Below are positions 1,096 through 62,270 of a DNA stretch of 64,000 nucleotides, in pieces. The notes below the pieces were generated by a model. The model ran no database searches, was not told where the DNA came from, and saw only the letters and a list, made by a program, of their open reading frames with translations. The number at the start of each line of letters is the position of its first letter. Position 1 is the first letter of the stretch. This DNA is from Stegostoma tigrinum (lineage: Eukaryota), in assembly GCF_030684315.1 (NCBI RefSeq), contig NC_081404.1:9915794-9979793 (forward strand), read 5' to 3'. Made by a program: the position numbers and the translations under genes.

Positions 1096-4000
1096 AAGTT
1101 GGCTCTTAACAGTCAGGATTAAGAAAGTTATAAGGAACCAATTGATTGCATCTGCATAAGTGGAAATCCAAAAAAAGCCACTAACTTGATTGAAAAGTCT
1201 ACTGACCAGGATATACTTTAAATCCATTGTTCTTCATAAATTGAACCAATTCAAAGAAAACACAAACAGAAACAAAAACTAAAAAAACAAGACTTTGAAA
1301 ATTTTTAATTTAATTGCACCACGCACATTAGTATCCAACAGAAATACAATTTTTTAAAACTTTGTTCAGAAAGAGACTAGTCTTTCGACAAAAAAATTCC
1401 TTGTCTCATACACTATCCACAGATAAGAAAATGGGTGTCCTTCACCCAGCCTTTGCTTATACTGCTCTGAAACTGGCTGCCATTAAACATCCAAGGACAC
1501 CTCAGGGACAAACCCTTGTGCTACTGCCGCATACTTTGCATGTGGCAAAATAGTTGGTTTCTGTTTGGTAACTTTCTTCAGTGACGTGGTTGAGTGGGGG
1601 ATTGTAGGTTAAAACTCATGTCCTCTCTACAAAACATCTGTGTCCATCTTTAGCAAGCAGAACAAGTCATAGTGTTAGTTTAATCTATGAGGAGACAGTA
1701 CACATGTCTATAGGATGACATCCTGCCTTCCAGTCTCCCAATTTCATCCCCACCCTCCTCCAAATTAAACCCTGCAATTTAGTAATGGTGAATTAATAAT
1801 CATTCAATATGTTTGAATCACAACCACGGATGGGGCTTGCTCAAAACAGGGTACTCAGCAAACTGACCAGAATTATTCTGAATGCTTAAATCACTAGATT
1901 GCCCTTCTGAAAGAATCTAACCATTTAAAAATGAATAGTTCATACTTCACACTATAAAATGATTACAGATCAACATTTAAAAAGTAAACTGATAACAAAT
2001 GTAGTCATACACAGCATGGAGAAAACTTGTTTAATTTTCTCACAAATTTGATTTTAGAAAACTTACACAATATCAATCAGGCAAGATACATAAATAAACT
2101 GGAAATTTAGGTTATTCTGGAGGTTCTTATCAATGGGAAAGTTTAACTTTGAAAAATGGTATTACATATAATACTTAAAAGGAAAAACACACCTAAAGAC
2201 ACAGTTCACTTGGCTCTATTCAGAAACAGTGTAAATTCATCCATTCTGGTCCTGTTTTAATCCTGACAATAAATGACAACACTGCTGTACATTCTTTGTC
2301 ATATAGTGTATAATATTTATATATACTGGATGTCAATGGTCATCTTCAGATTTTCAATAAATCATAACTTTTCATGAACAGACATCTGGGACTTGATGAA
2401 TATTAACAGTATGCACACTAAACAGTTATCAGCATTAAAATGGATAAAAACATGCTTAACTGACCATTTTCAAAAAGGTGCACGAGAAATCCTATTTTGA
2501 ACACCTGTGACAATCTTGGCATTCCACTTTACGCTGAAAAATCCCAGGGAGTTTCAATAGCAAAGGGTTTAATGTACTTTGGGATTAAAATTAGCAAAAA
2601 TTCATATTTCCCATGTTGCAGGCCCAAACCTCTCAGTGTTGGTTTTGGCTTTTTAATCCTTCCTCACAGTGCATTTTCTACATGGCTCCCTGGTTGACAG
2701 TAATGTCACCATTATGGAAATAGAAACTTTCATTTCTAATTTTAACAAGTTAGAAATCTGTAATTGAGTCAACATATTGAAAATATCTGAAGATTAAAAA
2801 AAACGTGCAAAAAGTTAAAACCACCTTGAAGTTAATAACTGTACAGAAAATTTGGGAAACTGCAGTTATTCTTAAACAAATTGGATGCAGGGCACAGGTT
2901 CATTTTCAGAATGCCATCTTTCCATTTGGAAGTACCATACTGCTTTTTGCACCTCCATCAGATGGCCCATCCTATCATGCAACAGAACAAGTCTAATGTT
3001 GTCATTCATTTAAGTGAAGAGTCAAATGGACAAAATGATGTACTACTCATACAACTTAAAGTAGAAAAAGAAAGCAACTGTCAACTGACTATATGACACC
3101 TATAAAACATCATTTACTACAGGACATTTTTGTATCCTATTTATAACTGCAAGCGTTCCCTTCTGTTTCCTCTGTCAGTTTTCTACTCTCCTCCTCCACA
3201 CCCAATGGCATTGACACCATGCTGAAGTATGGTTCAACAAGGTGTCCGGTGGTACCTCACCCAAGTGGTTATCTTTTGGTTGAGCCTGAATAGTGAAGGT
3301 TGGCAGGATATTCAACCGGGGGAAGGAAATATTACACTAGGTCAGATTCTGTCCCAGGTTTTCACCTTGCTCAACATCATGAGCATTTTAAGTAGGGGTA
3401 GTTTTACATTACCATTCAATATACATTTACTATATATTTATATATATATTTCCTACTTTCTCTGATTGGCTTTGCAGTTTTGTTGCTGATGAATTGAAAA
3501 CAAAAAGCAGTTGTGCTTATGTTATATACACTGGTGATGCACCCTTGAAGCTCTGATTAACAGCGCAATTGTGTGAGTTTACTTGACGAGATGCAGAAAT
3601 GGCATAGCAATCTATAAGTTTTGAGCTTTGAGCTTCTAAAAATCCCATGACAAAAGATGACAAATCACAGATCTTTTCTTCACATCATATGCTACAATGT
3701 TACTCTCATCTATTAGTTAGTGAGCACCCAGCCTCCACACTTCAGGCACTAAACAAGTATATATTTGTAATATACACAGTTTAGTCTGCTTCACCAACTT
3801 AAATCGTAGTACTGCAGCACTTTATAATCATTTTGATATCCTTGGAGGTTACAGTGGATATGTTTGTAATACAAATGCTTGTTTAGTTTTTTTTAAAAAC
3901 ACCTTCTATAGTTCAATCTTCAGAGGGCTTGTACAAATTTGAGGAAAAAATTACAAGAGCAAAAAATGCTCTGGTCAGGAACTCTAATTGTACAAAAACA

Positions 4001-5477
4001 TAACCAGGATTATGGAATTTGGCGACCTTATAAAGAGAGGCACAATTTTAATTACCAAAGTAATTTCGACTAAATGCACACACATTACTGAAAATTAACC
4101 CTCTGGGTGCATATTTGCTTTGAAATGGTACGGTATAGAACATCTATAAGCAAATATCAGGGAGATTTAAAATTGACCAAGTCAGCAAATTATTTATGTT
4201 TCTGATAACATCAACTGTAATTTAGTTAAAAAAAAAGGAAAAATAGACTTTGTGGCATATGATTGCTGGTAGAAAAAAATAAAAATATTGGTAATTAATT
4301 TAAAAAGTGAATTTCATAAATTGGAGAACGAAAGGAGAACCAGTAGTTTGTAATTTGTATAATATCCAATTATGTGTTTTGATAAAGACTGTCAGTTCAT
4401 TACTAATCTTACAGAACACATTTTTTGTTTAGCTTTATATAGAGGAAGTCTTGCCATCAGTACCCTGGAAAAACACAACTTTGTTACTTAACATACAGCT
4501 CGTCAATGCAATTTAAACTTTGAGAGCTCAATTAACGATCACCAGTAATTGAAGGCATTAACCCACATTGCTTCAGTGATCTTATTTCACACGTGTGCAA
4601 GTTGTGTTAGCCCTCTGTTGCTGCCAGGCTGCCTGATGCTGCATTTAAGACAGCCATTTTTTGGTTTTCAGTCCCCAACCTCACCACTCCCCAAAATCTC
4701 TCGAGGAAGTAGTCCCATTTATTTTACAGGGCAATATATCTACTAGGAGGGAGAATAACTGTCTTCTACATACCCACCAATTACTGCCCTGAACATAATT
4801 AAAGCATGGTTTTTTTTTAAGGGTGGGGGAGGGAGGGAAACAGTGATTTGCCTTTATTGCTGTTGAACAAAAACTCTGGATTTAAAAAAGTGTTTTAAAA
4901 ACAATCAATTGCTGAATAGGCGCAATCCTTTCTAACACATGCACAGTATTTTTTAAGGTACCTTTTTTATGGAAATAAACTAATTTTACATAAGCAGACA
5001 GAGCAACCATAGTGCGAGCAAAACTATTCCAAGTGCAGCAGCAGGAGAGTTCAAGTTGGTCTGGGTATTGCAATGCGTTGTCAAAAACTTTGCTTTCATT
5101 AGCACCAGAGTTTACAGGGTGAGCAAAACAAAAGCAACAGTTCTGCTGACACCAAGTTTTCAAAGCATTCAAAAACATGGGTTCTATTGGATTTTTTTTT
5201 GAACATTTGCGACATACATAGTGGCAAACTGAAGGGTGGTTTAACTTCAGTATGCTACTATTGCTGAGGTACAATTCTGCACAGGCAGTTTCCCAGTGAG
5301 CTCATAAGCACGCACCGTTTGAGACAGGAGTTAAAAAGCATCTTCCTTTCATTGTTTCGGCAAAAAGGTTGCTGATGGTGAGACTCCCTCTGTAAGAATC
5401 ATACTTAACTCAATTTTCACAATTTCCCTGGGAAACAACAACTGGAAAATATGAATTTTTCATAAAGTCTTCAAACC

Positions 5478-7124
5478 TCAACTCTCTTCTGCACGACAGA
5501 GGAACCTCATACTCTGTGATGCATTTGGGTAACTGACCATTTGAGTGGTGGTATAACTCATGGCAATTCCTGGCAGTGATTGTGTAACTGCCACAGGTGT
5601 AGAGATGGCAAGTGGTGCCATTGAGACTGGTGAAGTCATCCCCTGGGCATAGGGTGCAGAAATAGAAGCGCTAAGACGGGGAGGACTTTGGGATGTAGCT
5701 TCAGAACACAATGCATTATGAGCTCTAGCTTGCGCTATCAACTCTTGATGAGAAATGGGTTGTGATCTCAGTGTCTGGTTGCTCAGGGTGGTGTGAGTTT
5801 TTACTATGCTACGGTTATAATTGGTAACAGTGTGCATAGCTGGGTGTTGTGTTGGGTCAGCCCCAGTGTTCAGGATCCCCAACTTCACCTGCTTGCGCAG
5901 ATCTGCATTCTGTTCCAGAAGAACCTCATTAGTCAGCATTAAGCTTGACACCTGCTTTTTGAGCTCTTCATTGCGCTTTCTGAGCATATGGTTTTCCTCC
6001 TCCAAAAAACTTAGTTCACCTGGGCGCAGACTGGGAGTGCTGTAATCAAATACTTCAAAACGCAGGCCCTCCACCCTTCTCCTTTTCGGATGTTGGTCAT
6101 AATCACATCTCTCTGTCTCATAAAGGTCATCCAAACGATCATACCTACAAATCTCAGGAGAAAGTTCTCTATCTTGTGACGACACTCTTTCTACACTTTT
6201 TTTATCACTGTCATCACGTTTCAAATGCTGGAATTTACATTTGGATCCTCTTCGACACTTGCCCTTAAGGAAGTCACGACAGAATGGGATTTCCTTTGTA
6301 ATAAGAGGAAGATTAGAGGGTGAAAGCCCAAAAGTCACAGCCACTGTCTGTTGCAAGTGGGCAGGAAGCTTTCCTGTTTTATTGTAATAATTCTCTTCCC
6401 CCTTCGTCCCGTGAATGAATGTGCAGTTCTCACGGGTACATTTACTATTCTGAAAGTACTGACAAAAGATTGACTCATGCCGCATGTCACCCACAGTGTA
6501 GGCCTCAACATTGTCTGGATGGAAGTACCTGCAATTCTTACCACGGTTGCAGACATTGCGCAGAAAGTCACGGCAAACATTCCGTTTGCTCTTGCTCGCC
6601 TCATATTTGCTATTATTGACTAAATTATCAGCGTCATCACTTAGATCAGCGTGGTTGGTGACCTCAATATCATCTGGGTGAAAATACCTGCAATTCTTAC
6701 CACGATTGCAGAGATTGCGCAGAAAGTCTCTACAAACGTTCTGTTTGCTTTTGCCAGCCTCATCATTGCCAATGTTCACTAAATTATCAGTGTCATTCCT
6801 TAAGTCAGTGAGGTCAGAAGCCTCAATGTCATCTGGGTGGATATACCTGCAATTCTTACCACGGTTGCAGAGATTGCGCAGAAAGTCTCGGCAAATGTTC
6901 TGTTTGCTTTTACCAGCCTCATCACTGGCAGTGTTGACTAAATTATCAGTTTCGTTCCTTATGTCGGCGAGGTCGGAGGCCTCAATATCATCTGGATGGA
7001 AGTACCTGCAATTCTTACCACGGTTGCAGACATTGCGCAGAAAGTCTCGGCAAACATTCCGTTTGCTCTTGCCAGCCTCATATTTGCCGCTGTTGACTAA
7101 ATTATCAGTGTCGTTCTCGGACAT
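5478..7124 (-). CDS. ZC3H10-like paralogue, 548 aa, six CCCH zinc fingers (4x ZF1 + ZF2 + ZF3), KRRRV basic motif, coiled coil, low-complexity tail
   Basis: Uninterrupted ORF colinear with the ZC3H10 ORF at 37026-38228 (CRDFLRNVC, FLEEEN.MLRKR.EELKKQ, NEVLLEQNA, YP.ASQSMR). All Cys/His ligands are intact and a splice acceptor lies 48 nt upstream of the ATG. Confidence 0.9.
   Translation of the reverse strand: MSENDTDNLVNSGKYEAGKSKRNVCRDFLRNVCNRGKNCRYFHPDDIEASDLADIRNETDNLVNTASDEAGKSKQNICRDFLRNLCNRGKNCRYIHPDDIEASDLTDLRNDTDNLVNIGNDEAGKSKQNVCRDFLRNLCNRGKNCRYFHPDDIEVTNHADLSDDADNLVNNSKYEASKSKRNVCRDFLRNVCNRGKNCRYFHPDNVEAYTVGDMRHESIFCQYFQNSKCTRENCTFIHGTKGEENYYNKTGKLPAHLQQTVAVTFGLSPSNLPLITKEIPFCRDFLKGKCRRGSKCKFQHLKRDDSDKKSVERVSSQDRELSPEICRYDRLDDLYETERCDYDQHPKRRRVEGLRFEVFDYSTPSLRPGELSFLEEENHMLRKRNEELKKQVSSLMLTNEVLLEQNADLRKQVKLGILNTGADPTQHPAMHTVTNYNRSIVKTHTTLSNQTLRSQPISHQELIAQARAHNALCSEATSQSPPRLSASISAPYAQGMTSPVSMAPLAISTPVAVTQSLPGIAMSYTTTQMVSYPNASQSMRFLCRAEES
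6483..7118 (-). repeat. Coding tandem repeat, 4 x 159 bp (53 aa), one CCCH finger per unit
   Basis: Anchor aattcttacc recurs at 6533, 6692, 6851 and 7010 (exact 159-bp period); protein unit DNLVN...CRDFLRNxCNRGKNCRYxHPD. Confidence 0.95.
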
Positions 7125-7195
7125 GTTTCCAGATTATTTCTGCGCTACTCAGCCAAGGCTCTCAATAAACAACTGCAAAAGAAAAAGAAGCCAGA
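7125..7195 (-). other. 3' splice site and 5' UTR part of the paralogue's coding exon
   Basis: Minus strand reads cttctttttcttttgcag|ttgtttattgagagccttggctgagtagcgcagaaataatctggaaacATG (AG at 7174-7173); homologous to 36961-37025. Confidence 0.75.
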
Positions 7196-8057
7196 TCTTT
7201 TTACAATGAACAAGAGATTAATTTACAAAAGTAACTGGTTAATCTCTTTCTCTCAAAACATTTGTAGTTGCACGTATCATGGATTTTTAAGAAAATTAGG
7301 AAATGGTAGAAATTTTACAACAAAATGGAGAAGACGCTTTATTTTGACATATTGTCAGTATTCACCACCATTTCCTTCTATAGTCGACAGCAACATCTGA
7401 AATCTGCGTCTACGAAGAATAACATGAAAAATCGAGAAGTTGCTGGCAGTGATTTTGCATTCCTCCTCTGAAAGTACCATTTGTCTTTTTTTAAAATTTT
7501 TAACACGATACGTATTAATGATTTACAACTGTTTCTTTTCTTAAAGACACTGGCACAACAAAATAAGTAATGAATCACTACTAAGATTGTAATTATTTTT
7601 AAAATGAATTCTTGTTGTAATGATATTATAGTGATTTCTAAATACAGGGATGTACAATCAGCAGTGGTAACAAACTACTGAAGAAACAGGGTGAAGAACA
7701 GAGAAAATAAAATGATGGTGATTTAGCTCACCACAGTGTACAGTTCAGTCTACCCACACATACACATTATTGTGATAAATACTATGCAAAGGAATATTGC
7801 AAACCCAACCTTTCACTTTCCACATTAAATTCCACAACAGAGCTTAGTTGTTTACTGTACTGCATAAAATTCTTATAGCTAATCATTTCAGATTTGGTCC
7901 TCGAATTCTAGATTTTAAGAAATCTAAAACAAAACACTTCTAACACTTAACACCACAGCTACCAAGATAAATGTTTAATACCAACTTTAACACTTAATTA
8001 TTAGAATGGGAATACCCCAGATGATTAAATGCATTCCTAAATTGCAAACTAGCATAT

Positions 8058-8077
8058 TGTGCGCACACACACACACA

Positions 8078-8116
<39 letters not shown>

Positions 8117-8123
8117 GCGCGCG
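8058..8123. repeat. (CA)n microsatellite bordered by (GC)n
   Basis: Directly visible alternating purine-pyrimidine tract. Confidence 0.95.
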
Positions 8124-10476
8124 ACATGTTGAAATTTATGTTCATTAAAGAGCTTGCGAGTAAAAATTGATGGAATTATATAGATGAATATAAATGCTAC
8201 AGTTTTTAATTCATAAAAGCCAATTTATGAAAATGCAAGTGAAAATTTAATATAAGCAATGTCGAATTATGTTGACAAAGTTTCAATTTAACCGTGATTC
8301 AAAAATTAAACAAAAATCAAAACTTAAATTTTCTTCAATATATTTAACATATTGAGGCAACTTCTTTGCAAGATGTTATTAGAAATAAAGGCTGGATTCT
8401 AACGCTATAATCCATCTACACTTCAACTCTGACTCACATCTATCTCCATCAGACTTTTTTTGAGGCAGTAAAATACAGTTTTCAATTGTTTTGAGATTTT
8501 CCTTCTTCCCTCTTGAATCAAAGTAACAGGCAATTTTTGTCTTTGATAGTCAGGGGTGCTTTTTTATTTTGAAAGTTTTTACCTCACCCTCTCTGATTTC
8601 ACATCTCTTCTTTTCCGAAGATTATTCCCAAGAATCTATTGTTCTTTCATGTAAAAAACCTTTTCATCACCAATCCCATCCTCTCAGCACCTCTTACCTC
8701 TTTATTAAGTTTACATGTATCAGAAATTTGAGTACAGTTTCCATAATTTGATGGGTGGGAAAGGGGATGACTTTTTTGACATCAGTCCAATTTCTAGGTA
8801 CAAGGCAAGAAAACTTTCCTGTCACTTAGCCAACTGTCTTCACCCCATCCTCCCATTAACAACCACAAATTTTAATGTCTATTAATATGGAGCTTCTCTA
8901 AATTTTGTTTTCCTTCTTCTGAAGCTCCAAATACGCAGTGTTCCTACATCCTCAGCATGATTAAAGCAACGTTTATAACACTGAATAATTAGATGCTTGT
9001 TTTTGACTGGCATAGACTCAATGGGCCAAAAGGCCTTTCACTGTGTTGCAGACTTTTCATGACTCAATGCTCTCTACTCTAAATAATTATTTCTAAAAGG
9101 ACTTGAAAAGTATTACATGTTTACCTTTCATTCTTTGGTTTACCTCACCTTTCTCAATTTTTGTAGTGCCCTATTTAAGAAGGCTTAGTGGCTAAGTTCT
9201 TAACTTTAGAAAAATAATCTTGATTTGCACGTTTTATTTGCATCCAAAAGTGTGGGTGTGATAGCAACACATCACTGAAGAGAGGAAGTGAATGGCTTTT
9301 ATTTTAATTTATGCTACCATAGTACAAAGTGACAGTAATCTAAAACACAAACTGGACTCAGTTGCATAGAAGTGTGCAAACTATTGGTCTATTGCCTCAA
9401 CATTCTACGCAAGAATGCCTCAAGTGTCTGATAAATTGCTTCAAAATCAGTTTTGAGAAGCAAAAGGTCCCAAATAATGAATACAGGTGTTGATTCCAAG
9501 AGCAGCATGGCTTCCTGCACTGAATACATTTGCCAAGATAATGCTGACAAGTGCCATCAGACAAAGGTACAAAGGCTGTACTTTTGAGTTCTAAGCTCTC
9601 AGTTCAGCTTCAAGTCATCAGAATACTGCATTTTTATAAAGAGTCTGAACCAATTTCAAGCCAATTTTTGATTTCTGAACTAATTTTAAAGTTGTTATGA
9701 AAGGCAGGAAGGGCAAAACTTTACTATGTTTTCACCCAAGAACTGTGGATGAACTACCCAAATACAGTGTTTTGTTCTCCATGTATGTCCCCAGGATTAC
9801 TGTTTCTTTAAATATAACACAGTGATTCTGTCCAATCAAACAGCATAACAATTGAATCATTCTGCCCATCACCACCACTAACTTGAGTACACAAATGAAA
9901 ATTATGTCATCGTACTGAGGAGTCATACAGGATAGTATAATCTCAAGTTCACCCACAGTTTGCATTGAATTCTTTTATTAAACGGGCCAAAAGTGAAGGA
10001 CTAAAATAAACATACCTTGATTATTAAGATTAAACTAAAAGCAAAAGTTCTAGCCTGACAACTATTAAAAAGTGTGCACATGAATATGGAGCAAAGACAG
10101 GATTAAGCTTAGCAACGTATCGCTATCATTGAATAGTTATCAATATTGACATCTAGTTTAATATGAAGTACTTGGGCAAAACACAAAGGTATGTTGTTAC
10201 AGTGGACTCAAAACTCAGTAGGAGCCATTATCTTTAGGTGCAAATAGGAGGAGTCATAAAGTGCGAATCATCCAAACGATAGCAGAGAGAAAAATGAAAA
10301 AAAATTTACTCTCCCCCATACCTTTAAATGACCGACTAAAACTTGCTGCTTACACCTGCTCTTCCTCCTGAATGGCAAAACATGAAGTGACCTACAAAGA
10401 AAGTAATTGTCATTTTTGAAAGCAAAATCACTTAATTAGTTTTTAAAAAAAAATTCCAATGGTTCAGTAGATAAAT

Positions 10477-11065
10477 AAGACCATAAGACATAGGAGTGGA
10501 AGTAAGGCCATTCGGCCCATCAAGTCCACTCCGCCATTTAATCATGGCTGATGGGCTTTTCAACTCCACTTCCCTGCACTCTCCCCGTAGCCCTTGATTC
10601 CTTCTGAGATCAAGAATTTATCGATCTCTGCTTTGAAGACATTTAATGTCCTGGCCTCCACTGCGCTCCGTGGCAATGAATTCCACAGGCCCACCACTCT
10701 CTGGCTGAAGAAATGTCTCCTCATTTCCATTCTAAATTTACCCCCTCTAATTCTAAGGCTGTGCCCACGGGTCCTAGTCTCCCACCTAACGGAAACAACC
10801 TCCCAGTGTCCACCCTTTCTAAGCCATAAATTATCTTGTAAGTTTCTATTAGATCTCCCCTCAACCTTCTAAACTCTAATGAGTACAATCCCAGGATCCT
10901 TAGCCGTTCATCATACGTTAAACTGACCATTCCAGGGATCATCTGTGTGAATCTCTGCTGGACACGCTCCAGGGCTAGTATGTCCTTCCTGAGGTGTGGG
11001 GCCCAAAATTGGACACAGTATTCTAAATGGGGCCTAACTAGAGCTTTATAAAGTCTCAGAAGCAA
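10477..11065 (-). mobile_element. 5'-truncated CR1-type LINE in the paralogue's intron
   Basis: ORF 10721-11176 contains [32 protein letters not shown]; 3' tail near 10480. Confidence 0.85.
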
Positions 11066-11499
11066 ATGTACCAACTGTGTGGCAATAAAGCAGGTTTCAA
11101 TTTCAATCATTATTATTTCAAAAATAGACTGGAGAATCCATGTCAACGAACTATGGACAAGGCAGCATGTCCACATTCTTTAGTCAGATTTAAAAACAAG
11201 GCTTGGTGTATTTCTCGCCACTTGGAAAAAATGCCAGAGGTTGAGCAGTCTTAATGCAATGCTACCCACAAGAAAACCGCTTCTGCACGGAGCAAACAGG
11301 ACGAAGCGATTTTAAATAATATTACAACAATAAATTTGAATCAAAATTCGTTTGGCGTCTCATATTTGAAAACGGTGTGTTCGGTATCCTTTACAGGCTC
11401 TTCCCCTAGATTTTCATTTAGATTGTTTCATGTATAATGAATCCAACAATCCAGTTATAACCTTAATAATATTACTGGACACGAATTCCTTCATTCCTA

Positions 11500-11930
11500 A
11501 GAACAAATTCGTTCTTAGGCCTACCGGACATCTGTCAGCAACTCGCGCGAAATCGTAGTGTTGACAGCTCTGGTGGCGGAAAGTTCTCGAACTTGCTACG
11601 AGGCTTCAAGTACACTTCTAGGCCTCAACAAATTTACTCAAAATGATGCAAATGCCGACGCATAAATGAGGGAGGGGGGAACATTTTTTAAAACTAACCA
11701 CAGAAATAATTACACTCAATCAATCCAGGAATAAAACTGATTCATAAAAATACAATGAAACAGGACCACATTTACCGACACGGTGCAAGCTTTTTTTTAA
11801 AATCCTCTTAGTCCTCCAAGCACAGCGAATATGGACACAGGTCCTCCGAGACAAGAGCGCCCGTAGAAGATGCTGTCAAAACCTTTCTACAACCATTGTT
11901 CAATGAACACTAACTCGGTTACCGAATGTT
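11500..11930 (-). promoter_or_regulatory. CpG-rich putative promoter and non-coding first exon of the ZC3H10 paralogue
   Basis: Local CpG enrichment; reverse complement matches 26360-26720 (cgctcttgtctcggaggacct vs cgctcttgtctgggaggacct); candidate donor accgtgtcg|gtaaat near 11775. Confidence 0.65.
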
Positions 11931-11999
11931 TCCCACCTTATCACAAACTTTCCTCCCCAACTTCTATATTTCGTTAAAACGGTTACGATGTTTAACTTT

Positions 12000-12090
12000 T
12001 TCCAGTTCTGAACAAAGGTCTTTGACCTGAAACGTGAATTCTTTCGCTCTCCACAGATACGGCCAGATCTTTCAGAATCACTGGAAAGCA
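12000..12090 (+). mobile_element. Old degenerate relative of the hammerhead-bearing short elements
   Basis: ttctgaacaaaggtctttgacctgaaacgt resembles ctgatgaagggtc..gacccgaaacgtc; similar relics at ~22715-22815 (-), ~26170-26280 and ~45200-45320. Confidence 0.45.
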
Positions 12091-12944
12091 GGAGACTGTT
12101 CGGCCGATCGTGCCACCCCACCACATTTCCAGGCAGTGTATTTCATAGCATAACTACATGCTGTGTCAAAAAAATTCTCACATCACCTTTGCTTTGTTTG
12201 TACATCACTTTAAATCTATGCCTTCTCATTCTTTTTCTCTTTTATGAGCAGGAACAGCTTCTCCCTATCCACTCTGTCCCTACTCCCGCCTTCATAATTT
12301 TGAAACTGTAAGAGAAACAGTACCAGTTTTTTCAATCCTCATAATTGAAGCTTCTCATTCCTGGAACCAATCTTGCAAATTACTTCTACTGATTTGCTGA
12401 CTTTTTGTTTTTACCTCAAATCTTCAGCCACACTTTTGATTTTGTATGAGTATTAATTAGCTGCCACTTCTCTTCTAGGTATCCCTACCTTGAGGAAGTC
12501 CTGCCCACGACATCCGTGGGATTTTCATTAGTTTCTTATCTTGTTACTAAAACTCACTTCCATAGCCATATCCTCAGCAACTATCCCCAGCTAGAAATTA
12601 TTCGTGAATTTGACACTTAATGTTTTGGATCCACCCCTAATTACAGATAGCTCCAAGAATTCAGAATTCCTTGGATGGGCCATTACTTGGCTTTCACTGC
12701 ATCTTCAGATTCATACTCAATGCTATGTACATATTTTTGACATTGCTGTTCAGCAGTACTGTCTCACTCGAAGCTGTCCTGGTTCATGATTCCATTTCAT
12801 CTTTCACCTCATCTTACTTTTTAACAACGGCATTTTTTTCTACTTTCAAGTGTGAAGGTATCATAAGCTTTAACAATTCTTGGATACTGACAGCCTTTGA
12901 GATTCTTCTTCCCTTTCCATTTCTTTGACTCCATCCCTCCTTCC

Positions 12945-13510
12945 AGATTTCCATAAGGCATCTAATAAGGGGCCGTTAAAACATCATTGCAGAAAATACA
13001 AGGTCATGATGTAGGGGGTAATAATAGTGGCATTGACTGAAGATTGGCTAACGAACAGGAAACAGAGTAGGCATAAAATGGTTAATTTTCTGATTGGCAA
13101 GATTTCATGAATGGTGTGTCACAAGGATCAATGCTGAGACCTCAAACTTTTACAATTTACATAAATAAGGGACAAAAGTTTGGTTGTAAAATTTGCTGAT
13201 GATAAAGAAAGGGTGGAAAATAAGAGGACCAGGAAGTGACAAAGGAAATAGTAGGTTAACTGAGGAGAAATAGATCTGGCAAAATGGAGGATAATGTAGA
13301 AAAAATATGAAAGTGTCCATTTTGGCTGGAAGAATTAAGCATATTGTCTAAATAGCGAGAAATTGCAGAGCTGTCAGATGTAATCGGATCTGAGTGTACT
13401 GATACGTGAGTCACAAGGAGTTAGTGTGCAGGTACATTAAGTAATTAGGATAGCTAATAGAATGTGATGTTTACTGTGAGAGGAATGGAATACAAAAATA
13501 GGAAGGTTAT
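12945..13510 (+). mobile_element. Degraded CR1-type LINE, 5' part (interrupted; resumes at 21725)
   Basis: Decayed RT motifs (vSGVxQGS-like at ~13110, KFADD-like at ~13190); the reading continues after 21725. Confidence 0.7.
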
Positions 13511-14717
13511 TTAAGGTTTTAGCAAAGATCTGTAGCTTGGGTTGTGGGTGAGGTTGTTGACTTGCTCCCCGAGCTGGCTTGTTTTCATTCAGACATTTCG
13601 TCACCATGCCAAGTAACACCATCAGTGAGGCCTCTGATGAAGTTGGAATTTATACTGTCTGGTCCGTTATGGTGAGTACTGTCATTTCTGGTTTTGTTCT
13701 GTATGGGTTTGTATATGGGGTCCAATTCTATATATGTGTTGACTGCATTATGGATTGAGAACCATGCCTCTAGGAATTCCGGTGCATGTCTATGTTTGGC
13801 TTGAGCTACTATAGGTACGTTGTCCCAGTTAAACTGATGACCTTCATTGTCAGAGTGTACTGATATTAAGGAAAGTTCGTTGTGCCATTTTGCTGTCAGC
13901 CAATGTTCATATATTCTGATGGCTAGTTTCCTTCCTGTCTGTCCAGTGTAATGCTTGTGGCAATCGTTGCATGGTATTTTGTAAACCACATTTGTTCTGC
14001 ATGTTGTGGGAATGGGGTCTTTAATTCTTGTGAGTCTTTGTCGTTGTGGCAGTCATTGCATGGTATTTTGTAAACTACGTTGGTTCTGGATGTAAGTTTG
14101 CTCGCTGAGCTGGAAGGTTCGTTTTCAGATGTTTCGTCACCATTCTAGGTAACATCATCAGTGAGCCTCCAATGAAGCGCTGGTGTTATGTCCCGCTTTC
14201 TATTTATTTGGTTAGGTTTCCTTGGGTTGGTGATGTCATTTCCTGTTCTTTTTCTCAGGGGATGGTAGATTGGCTCCAAATCAATGTGTTTGTTGATGGA
14301 GTTCCGGTTGGAATGCCATGCTTCTAGGAATTCTCGTGCGTGTCTCTGTTTGGCTTGTCCTAGGATGGATGTGTTGTCCCAATCAAAGTGGTGTCCTTCC
14401 TCATCTGTATGTAAGGATACGAGTGATAGTGGGTCATGTCGTTTTGTGGCTAGTTGATGTTCATGTATCCTGGTGGCTAGCCTTCTGCCTGTTTGTCCAA
14501 TGCAGTGTTTGTCACAGTTCTTGCAAGGTATTTTGTAGATGACGTTCGTTTGATGTGGAACAAAATAAAGACCCACTCTCTTGTGGGCCGAGAGGAGGAG
14601 AGCGCTGCGTTGGGGGTGAAAGGAAGACGTCGGGTTGGCTGTGCACCCTTGCAACCAGTGGATCTTAATGCTGGCTTCGGCCTAACGCTGGTTCAGGGGA
14701 GCAGCCAACCTGCAACG

Positions 14718-16174
14718 ATTGCTGCGGCAAGTGCTCGTGCCCCAGGTCAGGGGGTCCGGAACACCATCCGTGTTTCCATGAAGAAGGTGGATGAAGGTGC
14801 ACCTGTGGACCGCACCTTCTTCGTGAAGAGGGTCCTGTTGGACTGTTGTGGGTTCACTGCTGCGGACATTTACTGCCTGCAGGATTTCCCCGGAGGAGGT
14901 TTTTACGATGTGACCTTCAGGAGTGCCAAGCTTTGCGAGCGCTTCCTGGAGGTTTTCAAGGAGAAAGGAGGTGAGGGCCCCCTCTCTGTATTGACCGCTG
15001 TCCCGCTGTTTGTGATGCCAGCGCAGAGGAGCCGTATGGTGACTGTACACATGTACAACCCGCATGTGCCAGCAGTTGATGTCCTGACCTTCCTTGGAAG
15101 GTACGTGAAGGTGGAAGGGGACCTAACTGACATGATGGACCCCTTTGGCATCTGGACCAGTAAGAGGCAGGTCAAGGTGACGCTGAGGATGGGCGCGGAT
15201 GGGAACATCGTACACCCACCGTCCAGCTTCGCGAGCAGCAGGAGCAAGGGCTACCTGACCTATGCAGGGCAACCTAAAGTCTGCCACGCCTGTGGTAGGT
15301 CAGGTCACGTGGCGACCGACTGCAAAGCCACCATCTGCAGGGAGGAGGGACACCTTTCAAAGGATTGCCCACAAGAGAAAAGCTGCAACCTTTGTGGGGG
15401 AGCGGGCCACCTCCTATAGGGCATGCCTGCAGCGGGGGACCACCTACACCCAGGTCGCCGGCAGGGGCAATGTGGGGCCAGCCCCCCCGGGAGGAGAGGA
15501 AAGCACCAGGGCCCTGCAAGGACCCCACTAATGTGCAGGAGGGCCAGGTCTTGCAGGAGGGCCCAGCCCCGCAGGATGGGCCCGAGGCCAGCAAAGCGCC
15601 CCTGCAGGCTCCGATCCCCGCCAACAACCCGGAGTCAATGGAGGCGGCGACAGGCGACCCAGGGGAGTGGACAACGGTCCGGAAAGCGAGGAGGAAGGTG
15701 CGTCGGCGGGCGCAGGAACCACAACCATCAGGCGGGAAGAGGCAGCTACAGGGGGGCTATGAGAGCTCCTCTGAGGAGGGGGATTCGGAGATGGCCCGCC
15801 CGAAGCAGAAGTTAAAGATCTCAAGGGAGAAGGAAAGCAGCACCACGCTTCCAGGTGACGGGAGGCGTCCTGAGGCTCCCTCCGACAACCAGTCACGTGC
15901 CGCTGGGGCACTGGAGGGCCCCCCGGAACTTCCAGGCGGGAAGGAGGAAACAGCGCGTCCCCAGCCTGACCCAGAGCCGGACTCTCCTGCCTCCGTACAC
16001 CCGACGGGGGGATGCCACCCGGAAGGCAGCACAGACGGTTTCCTGAGCCTGGAGAGCGTCCAGCAGTTAGCCCGAGCAATGGGCATGAAGGGACAGATAG
16101 AGGGGCTGGACCTTGGACTTGGGGAGGGTACTGCGGTCACTGCCCACAATGGGGGTACGAGTTGCGAGCATTAA
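14718..16174 (+). pseudogene. Tx1 ORF1 (gag-like, CCHC knuckles, ZCCHC3-like N-terminus), frameshifted
   Basis: VRNTIRV...DIYCLQDF...FYDVTF, CHACGRSGH and CNLCGGAGH motifs; the reading is split across frames 14493, 15262 and 15365; ATT at 14718 is probably a mutated ATG (inference). Confidence 0.7.
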
Positions 16175-19100
16175 TGTGCGCAGCGTCAAGTCCACCGCAA
16201 GATGTGTGTCCACGTTGGCCTACCTGACCACCGTCAGGGCAGACCTCCTGTTTCTGCAGGAGTGCGGGATACCGCACCTCATCAGGTACGGGAAATGGTA
16301 GGACGCCTGGACCTGTGGGCCTTCAATCTGGTCGGGGGGTAACGACTGTCGCTCCTCGGGCCTGACTATTCTGCTGCGGGGGCGCAACTTCACCATCTCT
16401 CAAGTTCAGGAGGTGGTGGGGGGGCGCCTCCTAGTGGCTGACGTCACCTACAGGAACGTTCCCCTGAGGCTGATCAACATGTACGCCCCAGCGGTACGGA
16501 GTGAGCGGTTGGCCATCCTGCAGTGGCTACCACCCCTCTTGGCTACGTCCAGGCCGGTCATCCTAGGCGGAGACTTCAACTGCATCATCGATGCAGATGG
16601 AAGATCCGACGTGGGGACAGCGGGTGGGGGGAGTCAACTGGACGTCACGTCCAGATTCCTGATGGGCACGGTGAAGGACGCCAAGCCGCTCGACGTCTTC
16701 AGCGCCCGTGCAGCGGAGGTACACCTGGTCGCGGCCAGACAGGTCTGTTCGCTCAAGGATAGACTTCCTGTTTGTGTTACGGGCGTCGAGCCGGTGTTCT
16801 TCTCTGACCACTGTCTCCTGCTGGCTGACTGTCACTTACAGGATGACCAGCCGGCCGGCAAGGGGATGTGGAAGCTCAACACGACTCTGTTGACCCCAGA
16901 GAACGTCGAGGACCTTAAGAGGGAGTACGCCGGTTGGAGAACCGTGAAACCCCTCTTTGAGTCTCTGGGTGACTGGTGGGAGACGGTGAAGGAGAACATC
17001 AAGAGGTTCTTTGTCCTCAAGGGTGCTCAGAAGGCGAGAGAGAGGCGGGGAAAGCTGTTGCGACTCCAGAAAAGGGTGCAGAACCTGCTCCTTCTGCAGT
17101 TGATGGGGGTCGATGTCACAGAGGACCCCCGCGAGGTGAGGGGCCATCAAGCCTCGCTCTTCGCCGCGGAGGCCTCCAGGATAATCTTCCGGTCCAGGGT
17201 CTGCTCCGTGGAGCAGGACGAGACGTGCTCGCGTTTCTTCTTTCAGAAGGTGCACAAAGAGAGCTCTGTGCTTAGCCGGCTGAAGGAGGACGACGGCTGG
17301 GTGATGTCGTCTCGGCCCGACATTTTGAGGATCAGCAGATGCTTCTATGCCGGACTGTACGACACGAAGCCCACAGACAGCACGGCCTCCGAGTCGTTCC
17401 TGTCGTCTATCACGGAGGTCTTAGACGACGGCACGAGGGAGTGGCTGGACCGGCGGATATCCCTGGACGAGCTGACCAGAGCCCTCAAGTCCTTGGAGAG
17501 GAATAGGACTCCCGGGAGCGACGGCTTACCGGTCGAGCCGTATTCCGCTCTGTGGGACCTCGTCGGCCAGGACCTGCTGGAGGTGTACGATAGCGCGCTT
17601 CGGGCAGGGGAAATGTGCAAGTCCATGAGGAAGGGCATCATCACCCTCATTAACAAGAGGAAGGGGGAGAGGGAAGAAATTAAGAATTGGCGTCCCATTT
17701 CACTATTGAACGTGGACTACAAAATCCTGGCCAAGGTCATAGCCAACCGGGTCAGGTCTGTCCTGGAGTCAGTGATTCACCCTGACCAAACCTGTGCTGT
17801 GCCGGGCAGGAAGATCGCTGAGAGCCTCGTGCTCATCAGGGATACGATCGCCTACGTGCAGGACAGGCGGGTGGACACCTGCCTCGTCAGCCTGGACCAG
17901 GAGAAGGCCTTCGACAGGGTCTCTCATACTTACATGAGGGACGTCCTCTCCAAATTGGGGTTCGGGGAGGGCATCCGCAATTGGATCCTGCTGCTCTACA
18001 CCAACATCGTTAGTGCAGTCTCGATCAACAGGTGGGATTCGGACAGTTTTCCCGTCAGGTCTGGAGTCAGGCAGGGCTGCCCGCTCTCTCCTGCCTTGTT
18101 TGTGTGCTGTGTGGAGCCCTTTGCCGCATCCATCAGGAAGGATGTGAGCATGAAGGGCGTGACTATCCCAGGCAGCGGAGGCCTTCAGGTCAAGACCTCC
18201 CTGTACATGGACGATGTCGCTGTCTTCTGCACCGATCGTCGGTCGGTGAGTAGACTGTTGGACATCTGCGGCCAGTTTGAACTGGCCTCGGGTGCCAAAG
18301 TCAATCGGGGTAAGAGCGAGGTCATGTTCTTCGGGAACTGGGACGACTGCCCCTTCATCCCCTTCACCGTCAGGACAGACTACCTGAAGGTGCTGGGTGT
18401 TTGGTTTGGTGGAGCTGGGGCGTGCACTAAAACTTGGGAGGAGTGTATCACCAAACTGAAGCAGAAGCTGGGCAGGTGGACGCTCCGGTCCCTCTCCATC
18501 GCGGGTAAGAACCTGGTTGTCAGGTGCGAGGGGCTTTCGGTACTGTTGTATGTGGCGCAGGCCTGGCCTATTCCCTGGACCTGCGCTGCTGCGGTCACCC
18601 GGGCCATCTTCCACTTCATTTGGGGGTCGAGGATGGACCGGGTCCGCAAGGACACCATGTACAAAGACCTGGAAAATGGGGGAAAGGGCATACCGAATGC
18701 CACCCTCGCCCTGACGGCTACCTTTGTGTGCGGCTGCATCAAGCTGTGTGTAGATCCTCAGTACGCAAACACCAAGTGTCACTACTTACTGGGGTTCTAC
18801 CTGTCCCCGGTGTCGTGAAGGATGGGCCTGGCCTCATTGCCGCGGAACGCTCCGAGTAGTTGGACCATTCCGTGCCATCTGTCCTTCATGGAGAAATTTT
18901 TGAAAGGAAACACCTTTGACCACAAGGCTGTCAGGCAGTGGTCAGCACATAGTATCCTCGGGACCCTTCAGGAAAAGGAGAGGGTGGATCCCGTCGTGTG
19001 GTTCCCCACGCAGACTGCCAAAGTCATTTGGCAGAATGCCTCATCGCCAGAACTTTCAAACAAGCACAAGGACATTGCTTGGCTGGCGGTGAGAGGGGCT

Positions 19101-19535
19101 CTGCCAGTGAGATCGTTTACGCATGCCCGGAATATCTGCGCCATCACACGCTGCCCTCGAGGTGGCTGCAGGGGGGACGAGACTGTCGATCACCTCCTTC
19201 TGGAGTGCGCCTATGCACAGGAGGTCTGGAGGGGGATGCAGTGGTATTTGTCGAGGTTCGTCCCGAGCAGCTCCATGATGCGGGACTCCATGCTTTACGG
19301 GCTGTTTCCTGGGACGCAAACCGAGACCAACATCAACTGCGCCTGGAGGACCATCAATGCGGTGAAAGACGCTCTTTGGTCTGCCCGCAACTTGCTGGTC
19401 TGCCAGCTGAAAGAACTGACCCCAACCGAGTGTTGCAGAATGGCACACTCCAAGGTCCAGGACTATGTGCTGAGGGACGTGCTAAAGCTTGGAGCAGCCG
19501 CCGCCAAGGCGCGGTGGGGAAAGACCACGGTATGA
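16149..19535 (+). pseudogene. Tx1 ORF2 (AP endonuclease, reverse transcriptase, C-terminal CCHC) with stops and frameshifts
   Basis: MGVRVASINVR, LFLQE, GGDFNC, SDHC, QGCPLSP, YMDD and CPRGGC..ETVDHLLLEC motifs; in-frame stops at 16299 and 18816. Confidence 0.85.
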
Positions 19536-37025: not shown

Positions 37026-38228
37026 ATGCCGGATAAAGATAATTTATTTAACAGTGGTAATGACGAGGCTGGCCACAGCTCAGATGATATTTGCCGAGAC
37101 TTCCTGCGCAATGTCTGCAAACGTGGTAAGCGCTGCAAGTTCTATCACCCTGATATTAATGAAGTGTCTGACTTGGGCGTAAAGAAAAATGAATTTGTCT
37201 TTTGTCATGACTATCAGAACAAGGAGTGCACTCGCATCAACTGCAAGTTTATTCATGGGACAAAGGAGGATGAGGAACATTACAAAAAGTCAGGAGAGCT
37301 TCCCCCACGCCTGCGCCTTACAGTGGCTATGGGTCTTGGCCTTTCACCTTCTGACCTCTCCTTTAAAAAAGGTGAGGTCCCAATTTGCCGTGACTACTTG
37401 AAAGGTGACTGTCAACGAGGATCTAAGTGTAAATTCCGGCACTTAAAACGTGATGAATATGAATATGAAAACAGAACTTTGGAGAGGTTGTCACGAGACC
37501 AAGTGATTTCTCCTGTAGTGCGTCGATATGACCCATTTGATGACCTCTATGATGCCGATCGCTATGCTGATTATGACCATGTTCTAAAGAGACGAAGAGT
37601 TGATGGCTTACGATTTGAGAGTTATGATTTTAATATTCCAAATTCGCGTCCAGTTGACTATCGGTTTTTAGAGGAGGAGAATCTCATGCTTCGAAAGCGT
37701 GTTGAGGAACTGAAAAAGCAGATCTCAAATTTGATGGCAACTAATGAGGTACTTTTGGAGCAAAATGCACATTTCCGCAACCAAACCAAGGTGGTCACAT
37801 TGACCTCCACTCCCACAGCAACAGAGCAAACGCTAGCAGCACCAACTGTGGGTGCAATCACCAATTACAACCATGGTATAGCACAGACTCACACCACTTT
37901 GAGCAGCCAAGCACTTCAACCACGACCTGTCACCCAGCAAGACCTCGTGGCAACTGCTGGAGCTACTGCTGCTCCACCTACTAATGCTGCACCAACAGCA
38001 CAGCATCTTAATCCTGAGATTGCTTCACTTCCTGCAGCGCTCGCCCAGACCATTGCCCAGGGAATGGCGCCTCCAGTTTCTATGGCCCCAGTGGCTGTTT
38101 CTGTTGCACCAGTGGCAGTATCAATTGCCCAAGCAATGCCAGGAATCACTATTAGCCATGCCACGACTCCAATGGTTACTTATCCAATTGCATCACAGAG
38201 TATGAGGATAACAGCAATTCCTCATTGA
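37026..38228 (+). CDS. ZC3H10: Zinc finger CCCH domain-containing protein 10, 400 aa, single coding exon
   Basis: MPDKD start; three CCCH fingers (CRDFLRNVCKRGKRCKFYH, CHDYQNKECTRINCKFIH, CRDYLKGDCQRGSKCKFRH), coiled coil and characteristic end YPIASQSMRITAIPH; acceptor tttttcag at 36977-36978. The ORF track's 37020 start is a GTG. Confidence 0.95.
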   Translation: MPDKDNLFNSGNDEAGHSSDDICRDFLRNVCKRGKRCKFYHPDINEVSDLGVKKNEFVFCHDYQNKECTRINCKFIHGTKEDEEHYKKSGELPPRLRLTVAMGLGLSPSDLSFKKGEVPICRDYLKGDCQRGSKCKFRHLKRDEYEYENRTLERLSRDQVISPVVRRYDPFDDLYDADRYADYDHVLKRRRVDGLRFESYDFNIPNSRPVDYRFLEEENLMLRKRVEELKKQISNLMATNEVLLEQNAHFRNQTKVVTLTSTPTATEQTLAAPTVGAITNYNHGIAQTHTTLSSQALQPRPVTQQDLVATAGATAAPPTNAAPTAQHLNPEIASLPAALAQTIAQGMAPPVSMAPVAVSVAPVAVSIAQAMPGITISHATTPMVTYPIASQSMRITAIPH

Positions 38229-59060: not shown

Positions 59061-61907
59061 CCTTGCTCCTTGTGGTTTTAGCACTATTAGTTGAGAAAGG
59101 AATATTGCCTTGGTTACTAGCAGAGCAATCAACCTGGGATCTGTTCGCTTTATACATCACACGAGCCGTCATTGCCACTGAGACATACACTAATATTTGC
59201 AAGTGAGTTGTCACTTTTTTACTATTTGCGTCCACGATATGAAAATGCTGACTTTAATTGCAGCCACTGCCTGTGCTCACCTTGACCAGGTATTATTTAT
59301 ATTGCAGCCTTTATTCTGGATGCTAAAGGGGGCTGCTACCAGAAGTAAATGCTTTCCTGGAGAAGGCAATGCTTATGCACTTGCTCTGTAGCACTGCAAA
59401 TGTTTGGACAAAATGTATCTGAAGCGGCCTAAGTTGTCCCCCCCTCTTCCCCCCGAGTTATTCCGACCGCAATACCAGCAACTGGAGAGCCCACCGAATC
59501 TGTTCTGCAAATCTTAGAAAGTATCTATACTTTTTAGGCTTGATACCAAATTGGGAGATTGGAACCTTCACTCTGAACTGATATTTGGATTGTTCAAACC
59601 TCCTGCCGTGAAAATTCACCTTCCACCTCCAACTCCTTCCCGGTGAGGTTTAGTAGGTCAGTTAGGAGATCGGTTTTCTTCACATGCCTTACCGGATACA
59701 CAAATTTTATCGGTTAGCGTCTGTTCACCAAGACCAAACGTTAAAGCTCATGCTGCAACACGCAGGTCCCAAAGCCTAGAATCACTACTGCAAGTAATGC
59801 AAACGCCAAGACCACAGAAGGGAGCAATCACCTCCAGAACTGATGGCAATTCACAGCTGAGTGAAACCTGCTTTTTGCCATTTTTAAAAAGAAAACTTTA
59901 TTTCCCAGCAATTTACAAGAATAACAAATGTATGTGACACCTAAAGCATCGCATACTCCCTGTTCTGTCCTACTTGCTAATATATTGAAACCCTCCAGTT
60001 TATTTATTAACATTTCAGCAGATTTCTAAGACCCTGAAAATGTCCAGGCTAGTATATTTAACCTACAGGGCTTTTATTTGAAATAAAATTCCTACGTAAT
60101 GTAACCGCGCCTGAGAAAAGCAATCCTTCAAATAAAACTACAAGTGAATAAATTCATGTTATGTCAATTATTGAAACAGAAATTAAGGCTTTTTAAAACG
60201 TCTGACATTCAAGGAAATTCGATCAAATTGATGGGACACTCAGGCTATAATTTTGGATGTGTCAAACAAATAGTAATCTCAGATGCAGACAAATCACCAA
60301 ACATCCTCAAACACGCCAGCTATTCAATTTAGCAATAATCACGTAATATTACTGTTCCTAATTTCAGTACCCGATTTTAGAAAGAAAACGCACATCTGGT
60401 CTACGTTTCAGGGTTACTGTTAAAATTCCAGGAAGGTGTTTTTTTTTCTTTTGTCATATCGGCCCCCAGAGAACGGCTGGTGTTGGATAGTATTTTATAA
60501 ACAGTATAGTCGAGCCCTCTTAGTCCGTAGAAACATGGAGGGGGAGGGCTGGTCTCACCCAGATTTTTAATGTAATTTTCGAAATATATGGCTAATTTTG
60601 TCTTGATAAATACTGAGGTTCGATTAAATTTCTGTCTGTTTTCACCTTGTCGGTTATAATGCCGAATTTCTGGCATTTTCATCACTCAATAAACTTCACT
60701 GCATTAAACAGGATCGAACAGTCCAAGAACTCCACGCAGAGAAAACCTGACTACAGTTCCGTGTTATTATTTTGTTTTAAGTTTATCATACATTATTGCT
60801 AGGTTAGAGCCAGAAATAAATTATCACTCCTTTTCAAAACTTCGATTGATCTGTCAAGGTATCAGATCTGCCTGTTGAGGCATTTTTAGTTAATTATTTG
60901 CAGTGTTATTTATATCAGGAAACGTGGAACTTTAAAAAATCTGAATGGTTTATTTGCATTTTGTGAAGAAAATCTCTTCATTTTGTTATGTTTAATTCCA
61001 AGTGGTGGGTAGCTTCCCAAATTTTCCTTCCTAAAGTTCAGACTCAGAATTAAGAAGCTTCTTGAATATGTCCTGGAGAGCAGCAATTCCCACTTGGTTC
61101 ACCATCTTCAAAAGTGTATAAAATGCAGTCATACTGTAACTACTGATAGATTATGTACACTCACCGCTTTATCTCACAGTAGACGAAACAAATACCTATT
61201 CAAAGTTATAGTCATCCCGTTTAAATGACGAGAGGTTTGAAAAGTAAACGGAGCAACGTTCCAGCAATTTTCATCACGGCACTTTCGATTAATATTCTTT
61301 TTGAAAGATTTCAAGTAACAGTTTACCAGGTTTGGTCGCATATTTCGCTGTCATTACAAGTACTGCATTCATTTCCACTTTTTTTATTTAATGCCGACTG
61401 GAATATTGCAATATGATGTTTTATTTCCTTATTCAAATCAAATAAATTTTAAACATCCTCGCATTTATTATTTCAACGAAAATTTTTTACCGTAGTTCGA
61501 AATGTATTTTATTTCAAATATTAAATGATCAATTCGATAAAGTTTAGATTTTACAACGGTTCAATCTGATTGTATAGATTCTCGATTAATGTGTCTCATA
61601 TCCTTAATACTTTGAAAATTGAGTTAGTTAACGTTACCTCAATTGATTCTCAAAGATGTTTCAGTCAAGCCTGTTGATTCAATAAAGGAAACTTTTAGAA
61701 GTACTGTTTATGGTCTCTACACGCTTACAGCGTCGTATTTTTCGAAACGCCTTTCGTAACTCTTATCAATCTTTGATTTTCCAGAACATCTATTTTTCTA
61801 TTTAATACTTGCTTTCAAAGTAAGGATTTTGTTGTTTTGCGCCCGCCAGATTCGTATTTTAACCTTTTTTTTTCTCCTGTTAAGTGTACGTTTGCCAACA
61901 TATTTAC

Positions 61908-62270
61908 CGTGTTGAGCCCCAGGTTGCCCCGTACTGAGGGAGGGGTGACCCCATACAGCACTGCTGCCCCCGCCACTGCCCCCAGGAGCTGAGCGACAAT
62001 GTACATTACACAGCGGAATATGCTCAGCTGCGCCCCCAGCAGGTAGGCGAAGGTAACGGCCGGGTTGAGGTGTGCCCCGCTGACATGTCCAACCGCCTGT
62101 ACCAGGGCAGCCAGGACAAAGCCAAAACCCAGAGAAACCAGCAGCACGTTCATGGGGCCCGGAGACCATCGCATGGTAAAGCCCAGTCCAAAAAACACGA
62201 AGAGCATGGTGGCAAAAAACTCTGCAAAGACTGCCCTCCAAAAGGAGATAGACTTCAGCTCCCACATCAT
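61908..62270 (-). CDS. MIP: Aquaporin-0 (lens major intrinsic protein) exon 1
   Basis: [21 protein letters not shown]...[13 protein letters not shown]...NLGLNT|gtaaat; the four exons give 263 aa from the second Met, all introns phase 0. Confidence 0.95.

Follow-up and report, generated by a model that had tools for sequence, protein, structure and literature searches.

The 64,000-nucleotide stretch of the Stegostoma tigrinum genome analysed here (the window) contains a gene of the ZC3H10 family with six CCCH zinc fingers. Two-, three- and six-finger versions of ZC3H10 have coexisted in sharks and rays for ~300 million years, and nearly every full-length relative examined has three fingers. 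Below, A is the canonical ZC3H10, B the six-finger gene, and C, D and E are further paralogues. Papers are cited by PMC accession.

At a probability of about one half (0.52), we read B as an intact, spliced shark and ray paralogue of ZC3H10 with a quadruplicated first finger (ZF1), likely X-linked. Its product is predicted to be a nuclear dimer, formed with itself or with C and probably not with ZC3H10, that would use avidity to bind arrays of short single-stranded motifs, with GpC-containing RNA as the most likely target.

Gene structure, transcript and orthologues

An earlier sequence-only reading had described an intact frame of 548 aa paralogous to ZC3H10. The frame is without stops and has 51% identity to A over 393 aa; A has 400 aa and lies ~30 kb away. 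The start of the B frame is a tandem repeat with a period of 159 nt, 3.9 copies and 84% matches. Residues 2-213 form four gap-free units of 53 aa with a CX7CX5CX3H finger apiece; ZF2 and ZF3 come after them. The CCCH fingers start at aa 25, 78, 131, 184, 221 and 282 and keep 24 of 24 zinc ligands, which confirms the four-fold ZF1 and the six fingers of that reading. Pairwise, the units differ at 23-39 of 159 nt (14-25% of the DNA) and at 11-20 aa, far above what assembly stutter would produce. Residues 184-300 align gap-free with the ZF1-ZF2-ZF3 core of ZC3H10, and Arg231 in ZF2 is the counterpart of human ZC3H10 R89. Coordinates are given in Table 1.

Table 1 Features of B, its paralogues and their surroundings. 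Plain positions are those of the window; the others carry a genome and scaffold handle.
Feature	Position	Strand	Remarks
B, six-finger ZC3H10 paralogue, 548 aa, single coding exon	5478..7124	-	ORF without stops; orthologues
Repeat unit 1, aa 2-54, finger aa 25-43	6963..7121	-	
Repeat unit 2, aa 55-107, finger aa 78-96	6804..6962	-	apparently the one absent in Pristis
Repeat unit 3, aa 108-160, finger aa 131-149	6645..6803	-	
Repeat unit 4, aa 161-213, finger aa 184-202	6486..6644	-	with ZF2 MBNL-tandem-like in sequence
ZF2, aa 221-238	6411..6464	-	invariant in 18/18 orthologues; Tyr223 (Asp-to-Tyr) common to C
ZF3, aa 282-300	6225..6281	-	
Basic cluster KRRRV, aa 347-351	6072..6086	-	counterpart of human nuclear localisation signal (NLS)
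Leucine zipper, aa 374-412	5889..6005	-	Asn385 at second a-position
3' UTR	3500..5477	-	true end beyond 3500; one run X3 contig continuous with coding sequence
Non-coding start of coding exon	7125..7172	-	acceptor region homologous in A, B, D and pseudogene fragment
5' UTR exon 2	10322..10391	-	GT-AG intron 7173-10321
5' UTR exon 1, far end approximate	11776..12042	-	GT-AG intron 10392-11775
A, canonical three-finger ZC3H10	37026..38228	+	divergent to B
MIP/aquaporin-family gene, exon 1	61815..62270	-	synteny marker; would be X-linked too
C (L002), 279 aa, three fingers	G000:C64:9813477-9814313	-	without C-terminal tail and S-P site
D (L004), 226 aa, two fingers	G000:C64:9841715-9842392	-	ZF2 and its helices deleted
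ZC3H10 fragment, broken, containing stops	G000:C64:9862229-9862378	-	upstream acceptor region kept; fifth array member, dead, ~60 kb from B
E (L005), two fingers	G000:C47:10838329-10839258	+	without ZF2

Splicing was checked with contigs from four putative-RNA runs of related species, aligned to positions 3500-13400. The joint 7172-10322 was present in three of the four runs, and a second joint, 10389-11774, in two. Both gaps that the contigs skip are GT-AG introns. DNA would not give contigs that skip such introns, so B is spliced in the relatives. Single contigs covered 6540-7029 in runs X1 and X3. The doubt whether B is transcribed at all was thus answered by spliced B contigs in the relatives' runs. 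Among the runs listed as containing the gene, none was recorded as RNA, which speaks neither for nor against transcription.

A protein search over 8000 scored candidates of 301-959 aa gave five clusters at 84-98% identity, four of which had named shark or ray members. Orthologues of B with four units were found in at least 15 named species (galeomorph and squalomorph sharks, rays and a skate). The full-length set comprised 18 proteins, leaving out two near-duplicate records and the two pieces (180 and 335 aa) into which the Hemiscyllium annotation of B is split. Four units were present in 17 of the 18; Pristis has three. The Pristiophorus protein has ~10 extra residues ahead of the fourth finger, and the B sequence of run X3 an in-frame insertion of 6 nt. 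Units of exact length, as the sequence-only reading had them, are therefore a property of B itself but not of all its orthologues. The three units of Pristis and the split Hemiscyllium annotation mean either that four units are dispensable or that those assemblies are wrong. The ZF1 ligands were kept in 71 of 71 expected copies. As the comparison of repeat number between species returned a shared architecture, and the orthologues were intact, neither an assembly artefact nor disabled orthologues were found.

B was 88-90% identical to its Mobula and Rhinoraja orthologues (to Mobula, 89.9% for B vs 95.8% for A). The same unit in shark and ray had an identity of 0.83-0.91, different units 0.62-0.80, and grouping was mostly by position. 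Because units match by position across sharks and rays, the four-unit array must be older than the shark-ray split, reported at ~300 million years (PMC12318234).

Among 16 orthologues, 66 of 76 finger sites were invariant, vs 76 of 136 linker sites (p=3e-6). Over the first 248 codons of B, the contigs of the four relatives' runs contained 21 distinct substitutions, 12 non-synonymous and 9 synonymous. All 12 non-synonymous ones fell outside the finger cores; four synonymous ones were inside. Per run, pN/pS was 0.21-0.40, on 8-15 changes each and with branches shared between runs. Between units 1 and 4, the 57 nt of the finger core contain a single difference, with a linker dS of 0.69, which suggests gene conversion between these cores. 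Gene conversion can homogenise fingers without selection and may thus add to their conservation. The basic cluster, R231 and the coil were kept in all 18 orthologues, and the C-terminus, new compared with A, was conserved among them. The KRRRV motif was rightly described as retained in B, and KR(R/K)(R/K) was found in 18/18 orthologues; the literal KRRRV was found in only 8/18.

Predicted nucleic-acid binding and partner choice

The best PDB sequence match of unit 4 together with ZF2 was MBNL1 ZF3/4 (E 2.4e-7). In MBNL1 an aromatic residue intercalates at a GC step, and the RNA-face residues have been named (PMC9780971). The equivalents of R186, F188, R190, R195 and G196 were invariant in 71/71 ZF1 copies; that of R201 was Arg in 70 and Lys in one, and that of F202 aromatic in 71/71. 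With these residues kept, each ZF1 copy would read one short step.

The sequence-only reading had pointed to a change from CKRGKRC to CNRGKNC in ZF1. Its second substitution is fixed (Asn in 71/71 copies), and the first is not (N 44, T 14, S 12, H 1). The two basic residues lost within the finger compared with A are not among the RNA-face equivalents. What the finger thereby seems to lose in basic character is made up upstream: the eight residues ahead of each finger, acidic in ZC3H10, are basic in B, and each module has a net charge of +6/+7 vs +4. The linkers contain 8-9 acidic vs 1 basic residue per 26. An AlphaFold model of 197 aa had fingers that fold singly, a disordered linker (pLDDT <50) and no packing between modules (pTM 0.29). 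A Foldseek search with this model gave no match at E 0.001 or better; MBNL1 appeared at E 0.017. In the full-length model of B, with a mean pLDDT of 38, the coil alone was confident.

The acidic, disordered linkers would space the finger copies like beads on a string. B would favour targets in which the motif recurs, such as GC-step arrays in pre-mRNA or pri-miRNA, over the single AGUGCAG(CG)-type site of ZC3H10, and we infer that it is an avidity binder of repeated short motifs. In human ZC3H10, ZF1 and ZF2 bind RNA and mutating either blocks binding (PMC6911170, citing Treiber 2017), so a ZF1 copy by itself may have weak binding or none.

ZF2 itself has changed. At aa 223 a Tyr replaces Asp in 21/21 B and 15/15 C proteins; the Tyr was absent in 13/13 A proteins and in 162 other matches. 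This position reportedly helps to read guanine, in what Teplova and Patel described in 2008. A shifted specificity of B would follow, as a guess.

The nature of the target is the first point on which readings diverge. The motifs reported for ZC3H10 (PMC11612968, PMC6911170, PMC13375009) are AGUGCAG/GCAGCG in RNA, the human motif (PMC11612968), and TYCCNG/TTTC in DNA, and the protein also has published DNA-binding roles (PMC6911170, PMC13375009). B might mainly bind single-stranded promoter DNA, its extra fingers reading repeated TTTC and tuning shark antiviral signalling. Repression of interferon-stimulated genes by human ZC3H10 is reported to need the three fingers, the NLS, the coiled coil and R89, with ssDNA preferred (PMC13375009), and R231, the basic cluster and the coil are what all 18 orthologues keep. 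However, the finger repeated in B is ZF1 and not the R89-bearing ZF2, ZF2 has a fixed Asp-to-Tyr change, the closest solved relatives of the fingers are RNA binders, and the human basis is one study. We consider promoter DNA an unlikely main target.

The coiled coil, which the sequence-only reading had as retained, is a helix at aa 368-419 in the AlphaFold model. Its zipper carries Leu in the d and Asn in the a positions. Modelled as two copies, the zipper gave a parallel in-register dimer, N385 facing N385', with a score of 0.53 vs 0.00 for the best of three controls; runs shared at least 91% of contacts at a pLDDT of at least 79. Among eukaryotic proteins, 17 of 29 solved pairs attained the score mark for a dimer, as did 0 of 30 single chains; for a zipper, resemblance to solved zippers may be enough to pass. 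Asn at the second a-position was found in 21/21 B and 15/15 C proteins. It was present in 0/18 elasmobranch A, 0/13 D and 0/14 E proteins, in 0/150 others parsed of 162, and in 0/26 distant relatives parsed of 29; the residue in ZC3H10 is otherwise Val, Ile or Met.

These counts bear on the proposal that B heteromerises with ZC3H10 through the shared coil, in which case it could retarget or inhibit ZC3H10. The two genes adjoin, and five of six d leucines, the scored e/g positions and three core Asn are the same in A and B. Yet the pair would have an Asn385-Val mismatch in an inner heptad, and every B and C protein has this Asn. In bZIP dimers an Asn-Val a-a' pair is strongly destabilising, and such pairs are rare among bZIP binders (PMC4335062), a rule derived from bZIPs. 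The shared coil thus more likely separates B and C from ZC3H10, and the core Val-to-Asn change makes this heterodimer, too, an unlikely arrangement. C has both the zipper Asn and the ZF2 Tyr in common with B and is the predicted partner. In the reading that we prefer, B more likely pairs with itself or with C than with ZC3H10; under the same bZIP rules, a fourth core Asn pair would weaken B-B dimers too (PMC4335062). A parallel zipper dimer of B would present up to 12 fingers, and a B/C network would be insulated from ZC3H10. B would in that case be a multivalent nucleic-acid-binding regulator in its own right.

Units 1-3 could also be protein-interaction or self-inhibiting modules, with the acidic linkers folding back onto the basic fingers. 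These units are without a ZF2 partner, and their strongly acidic linkers adjoin the +6/+7 finger modules. We regard such a role as quite improbable, given the retention of the RNA-face residues (70-71 of 71 copies) and the weak constraint on linker sequence.

The paralogue array and its chromosome

The description of B as the second gene of a single-copy family did not stand, since the genome carries five intact paralogues. A, B, C, D and the broken fragment lie within about 140 kb of scaffold C64, and E on scaffold C47. The finger counts of the four-gene array are 3, 6, 3 and 2. Both C and D have conserved orthologues in sharks and rays (identity to Mobula 94% for C and 99% for D), and an identical D protein is recorded in several shark genera. 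An E orthologue is present in chimaera; protein searches with B and C queries gave no B- or C-like chimaera proteins.

In the trees the array resolves as (D,(B,C)), with B sister to C (96/86) inside the cartilaginous-fish ZC3H10 paralogues. The stem branch of B has 0.53-0.63 substitutions per site vs 0.04-0.06 for ZC3H10 (A), and the crowns are short, which indicates a burst of change followed by conservation. The trees group chimaera ZC3H10 with A (bootstrap 84-94); an elasmobranch-only origin was not rejected by the AU test (p=0.151). The acceptor regions common to the paralogues indicate duplication at the DNA level; retroposition was ruled out by this shared upstream region. E is without ZF2 like D, yet sits on a separate branch, so two independent losses of ZF2 are suggested.

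DNA-level tandem duplication of ZC3H10 would have produced D and an ancestor of B and C. In this ancestor the zipper Val would have changed to Asn and the ZF2 Asp to Tyr, and in B a 159-bp block, from the protein start to the ZF1-ZF2 linker, would have been amplified. Duplications, residue changes and ZF1 amplification would all be older than the shark-ray split. Intact orthologues, the long stem with its short crown, and intact fingers bear out a functional, long-conserved and probably neofunctionalised paralogue.

Several further observations were made. The neighbourhood of E contained repeats only, with about 35 kb of purine-rich simple repeat directly upstream of the gene (G000:C47:10797400-10833000). 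Divergent ZC3H10-like proteins of 324-382 aa in the salamanders Pleurodeles and Ambystoma (P0163, P0177, P0179) may stem from a separate expansion. On a single Rhinoraja contig, two near-identical records of three-finger ZC3H10 (P0009, P0010) perhaps reflect a recent duplication of A. Between B and A, a GC-rich, nearly intact non-LTR retrotransposon-like element occupies 14553-19535 (+), with a zinc-knuckle ORF and an endonuclease/reverse-transcriptase-like ORF in pieces. Near-identical reverse-transcriptase-like ORFs at 42771-43496 and 46069-47133 (-), 3.6 kb apart, are probably recent LINE copies.

The chromosomal location is a point absent from the earlier reading. The shark X is reported to be homologous to part of human chromosome 12 (PMC10620051), and elasmobranch X markers include Gdf11, Dhh, Wnt1/6b/10b, Igfbp6 and Stat2/6 (PMC12318234). 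C64 carries a Gdf11-type gene, for which Gdf11 was diagnostic (217.5 vs 208.2 bits); a counterpart on scaffold C9 scored marginally higher with GDF8. The scaffold further carries a cluster of three Wnt genes with a Hedgehog gene next to it, as well as an IGFBP domain and a STAT exon. Best-hit naming gave SHH, IGFBP5 and, marginally, STAT6 for the last three, exons that are not diagnostic. A search for activin receptor found nothing on C64. The scaffold measures 19.6 Mb, with the locus mid-scaffold at 9.9 Mb; reported sizes are about 20 Mb for the zebra shark X and about 12 Mb for an earlier whale shark X (PMC13100897), and the whale shark ZC3H10 paralogues are on a 12.2-Mb contig. Published pseudoautosomal regions are described as chromosome ends of about 1.5 Mb, at a distance from the locus. 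From synteny and size, the array very probably lies on the elasmobranch X.

Elasmobranch X genes are reported to be ~1.5-fold female-biased, without global dosage compensation, and sex is thought to follow X dose. If X-linked outside the pseudoautosomal region, the array adds lineage-specific regulators to the dose-sensitive candidates for shark sex determination; the published search centred on signalling genes, and embryonic gonad RNA-seq exists for bamboo shark. It is a long shot that the array arose on a differentiating proto-X and that insulated B/C dimers, with expression in XX embryos ~1.5-fold higher, would switch RNA binding cooperatively and in a dose-sensitive way. On what is the oldest sex chromosome of vertebrates, this would then be an overlooked candidate for the X-counting signal of sex determination, or for dosage compensation gene by gene.

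Dosage could also be the whole story, the duplicates being kept only for ZC3H10 dosage as the Y decayed, or for split expression, with the repeat a by-product held by gene conversion. The missing global compensation, the signs of conversion between finger cores and the three units of Pristis would fit. We find this very unlikely, as B is only 51% identical to A, the zipper and ZF2 changes are fixed, the new C-terminus is conserved, and the four units of 17/18 orthologues have position-specific identity. Tandem repeats can misassemble and a broken paralogue fragment lies 60 kb away, but with units differing by 14-25% in DNA, the same architecture in at least 15 named species and spliced contigs, we give an assembly artefact or a pseudogene next to no credence.

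Among the matches listed in a literature search that covered mostly openly available work, no papers on shark or ray ZC3H10-like proteins were found. ZC3H10 was absent from the available parts of the supplements of PMC11406177 and PMC12318234, the latter consisting of sample tables. A co-expression mention of tilapia zc3h10 (PMC10939319) was set aside as too weak as evidence. The roles of mammalian ZC3H10 in RNA vs DNA binding are disputed, and the array is a natural experiment on how finger number and zipper code set targets, with Asn385 and Tyr223 as single-residue test points.

Comparison with known systems

B belongs to the ZC3H10 family by core spacing, clade, NLS and coil. With six fingers it is not the canonical orthologue, which is the slow-evolving A. 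It has in common with human and mouse ZC3H10 the ZF1-ZF2-ZF3 core, the R89 equivalent, the basic NLS, the leucine zipper, an S-P site (mouse S126 = B S268), a C-terminal low-complexity tail, the single coding exon and the locus. Unlike ZC3H10, it has four ZF1 instead of one, Asn at the second zipper a-position, Tyr for Asp in ZF2, basic and not acidic residues before ZF1, and a new C-terminus, and it is part of a four-gene array. A search of 1.84 billion proteins gave 143 new matches, 29 with a ZC3H10-type zipper; these distant proteins had three fingers in 29/29 cases. Shark and ray database records named 'zinc finger CCCH domain-containing protein 10-like' are the same gene, predicted automatically, and come without finger count, paralogue identity, zipper change or function. 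The family is thus known and the gene annotated; the six-finger form was not found in print.

MBNL1-3 resemble B in the alignment of ZF1-ZF2 to MBNL1 ZF3/4, in the RNA-face residues and in multi-finger multivalency. They have two complete tandem pairs with CX7CX6CX3H/CX7CX4CX3H spacing (PMC9780971). In contrast, B has three lone CX7CX5CX3H first fingers, one pair, a further finger and a leucine zipper. The MBNL-family spacing was not found, with CX7CX5CX3H in 71/71 ZF1 copies and one tandem pair only.

The third likeness is to Asn-insulated bZIP families. B gave no Pfam bZIP match, and the 20 residues before Leu374 include two prolines and no Asn. Unlike bZIP proteins, it has CCCH fingers as binding modules and is without a canonical basic region at the zipper. 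Like them, it has Leu at d, Asn at a and a predicted parallel in-register dimer, in which the new Asn would separate partners.
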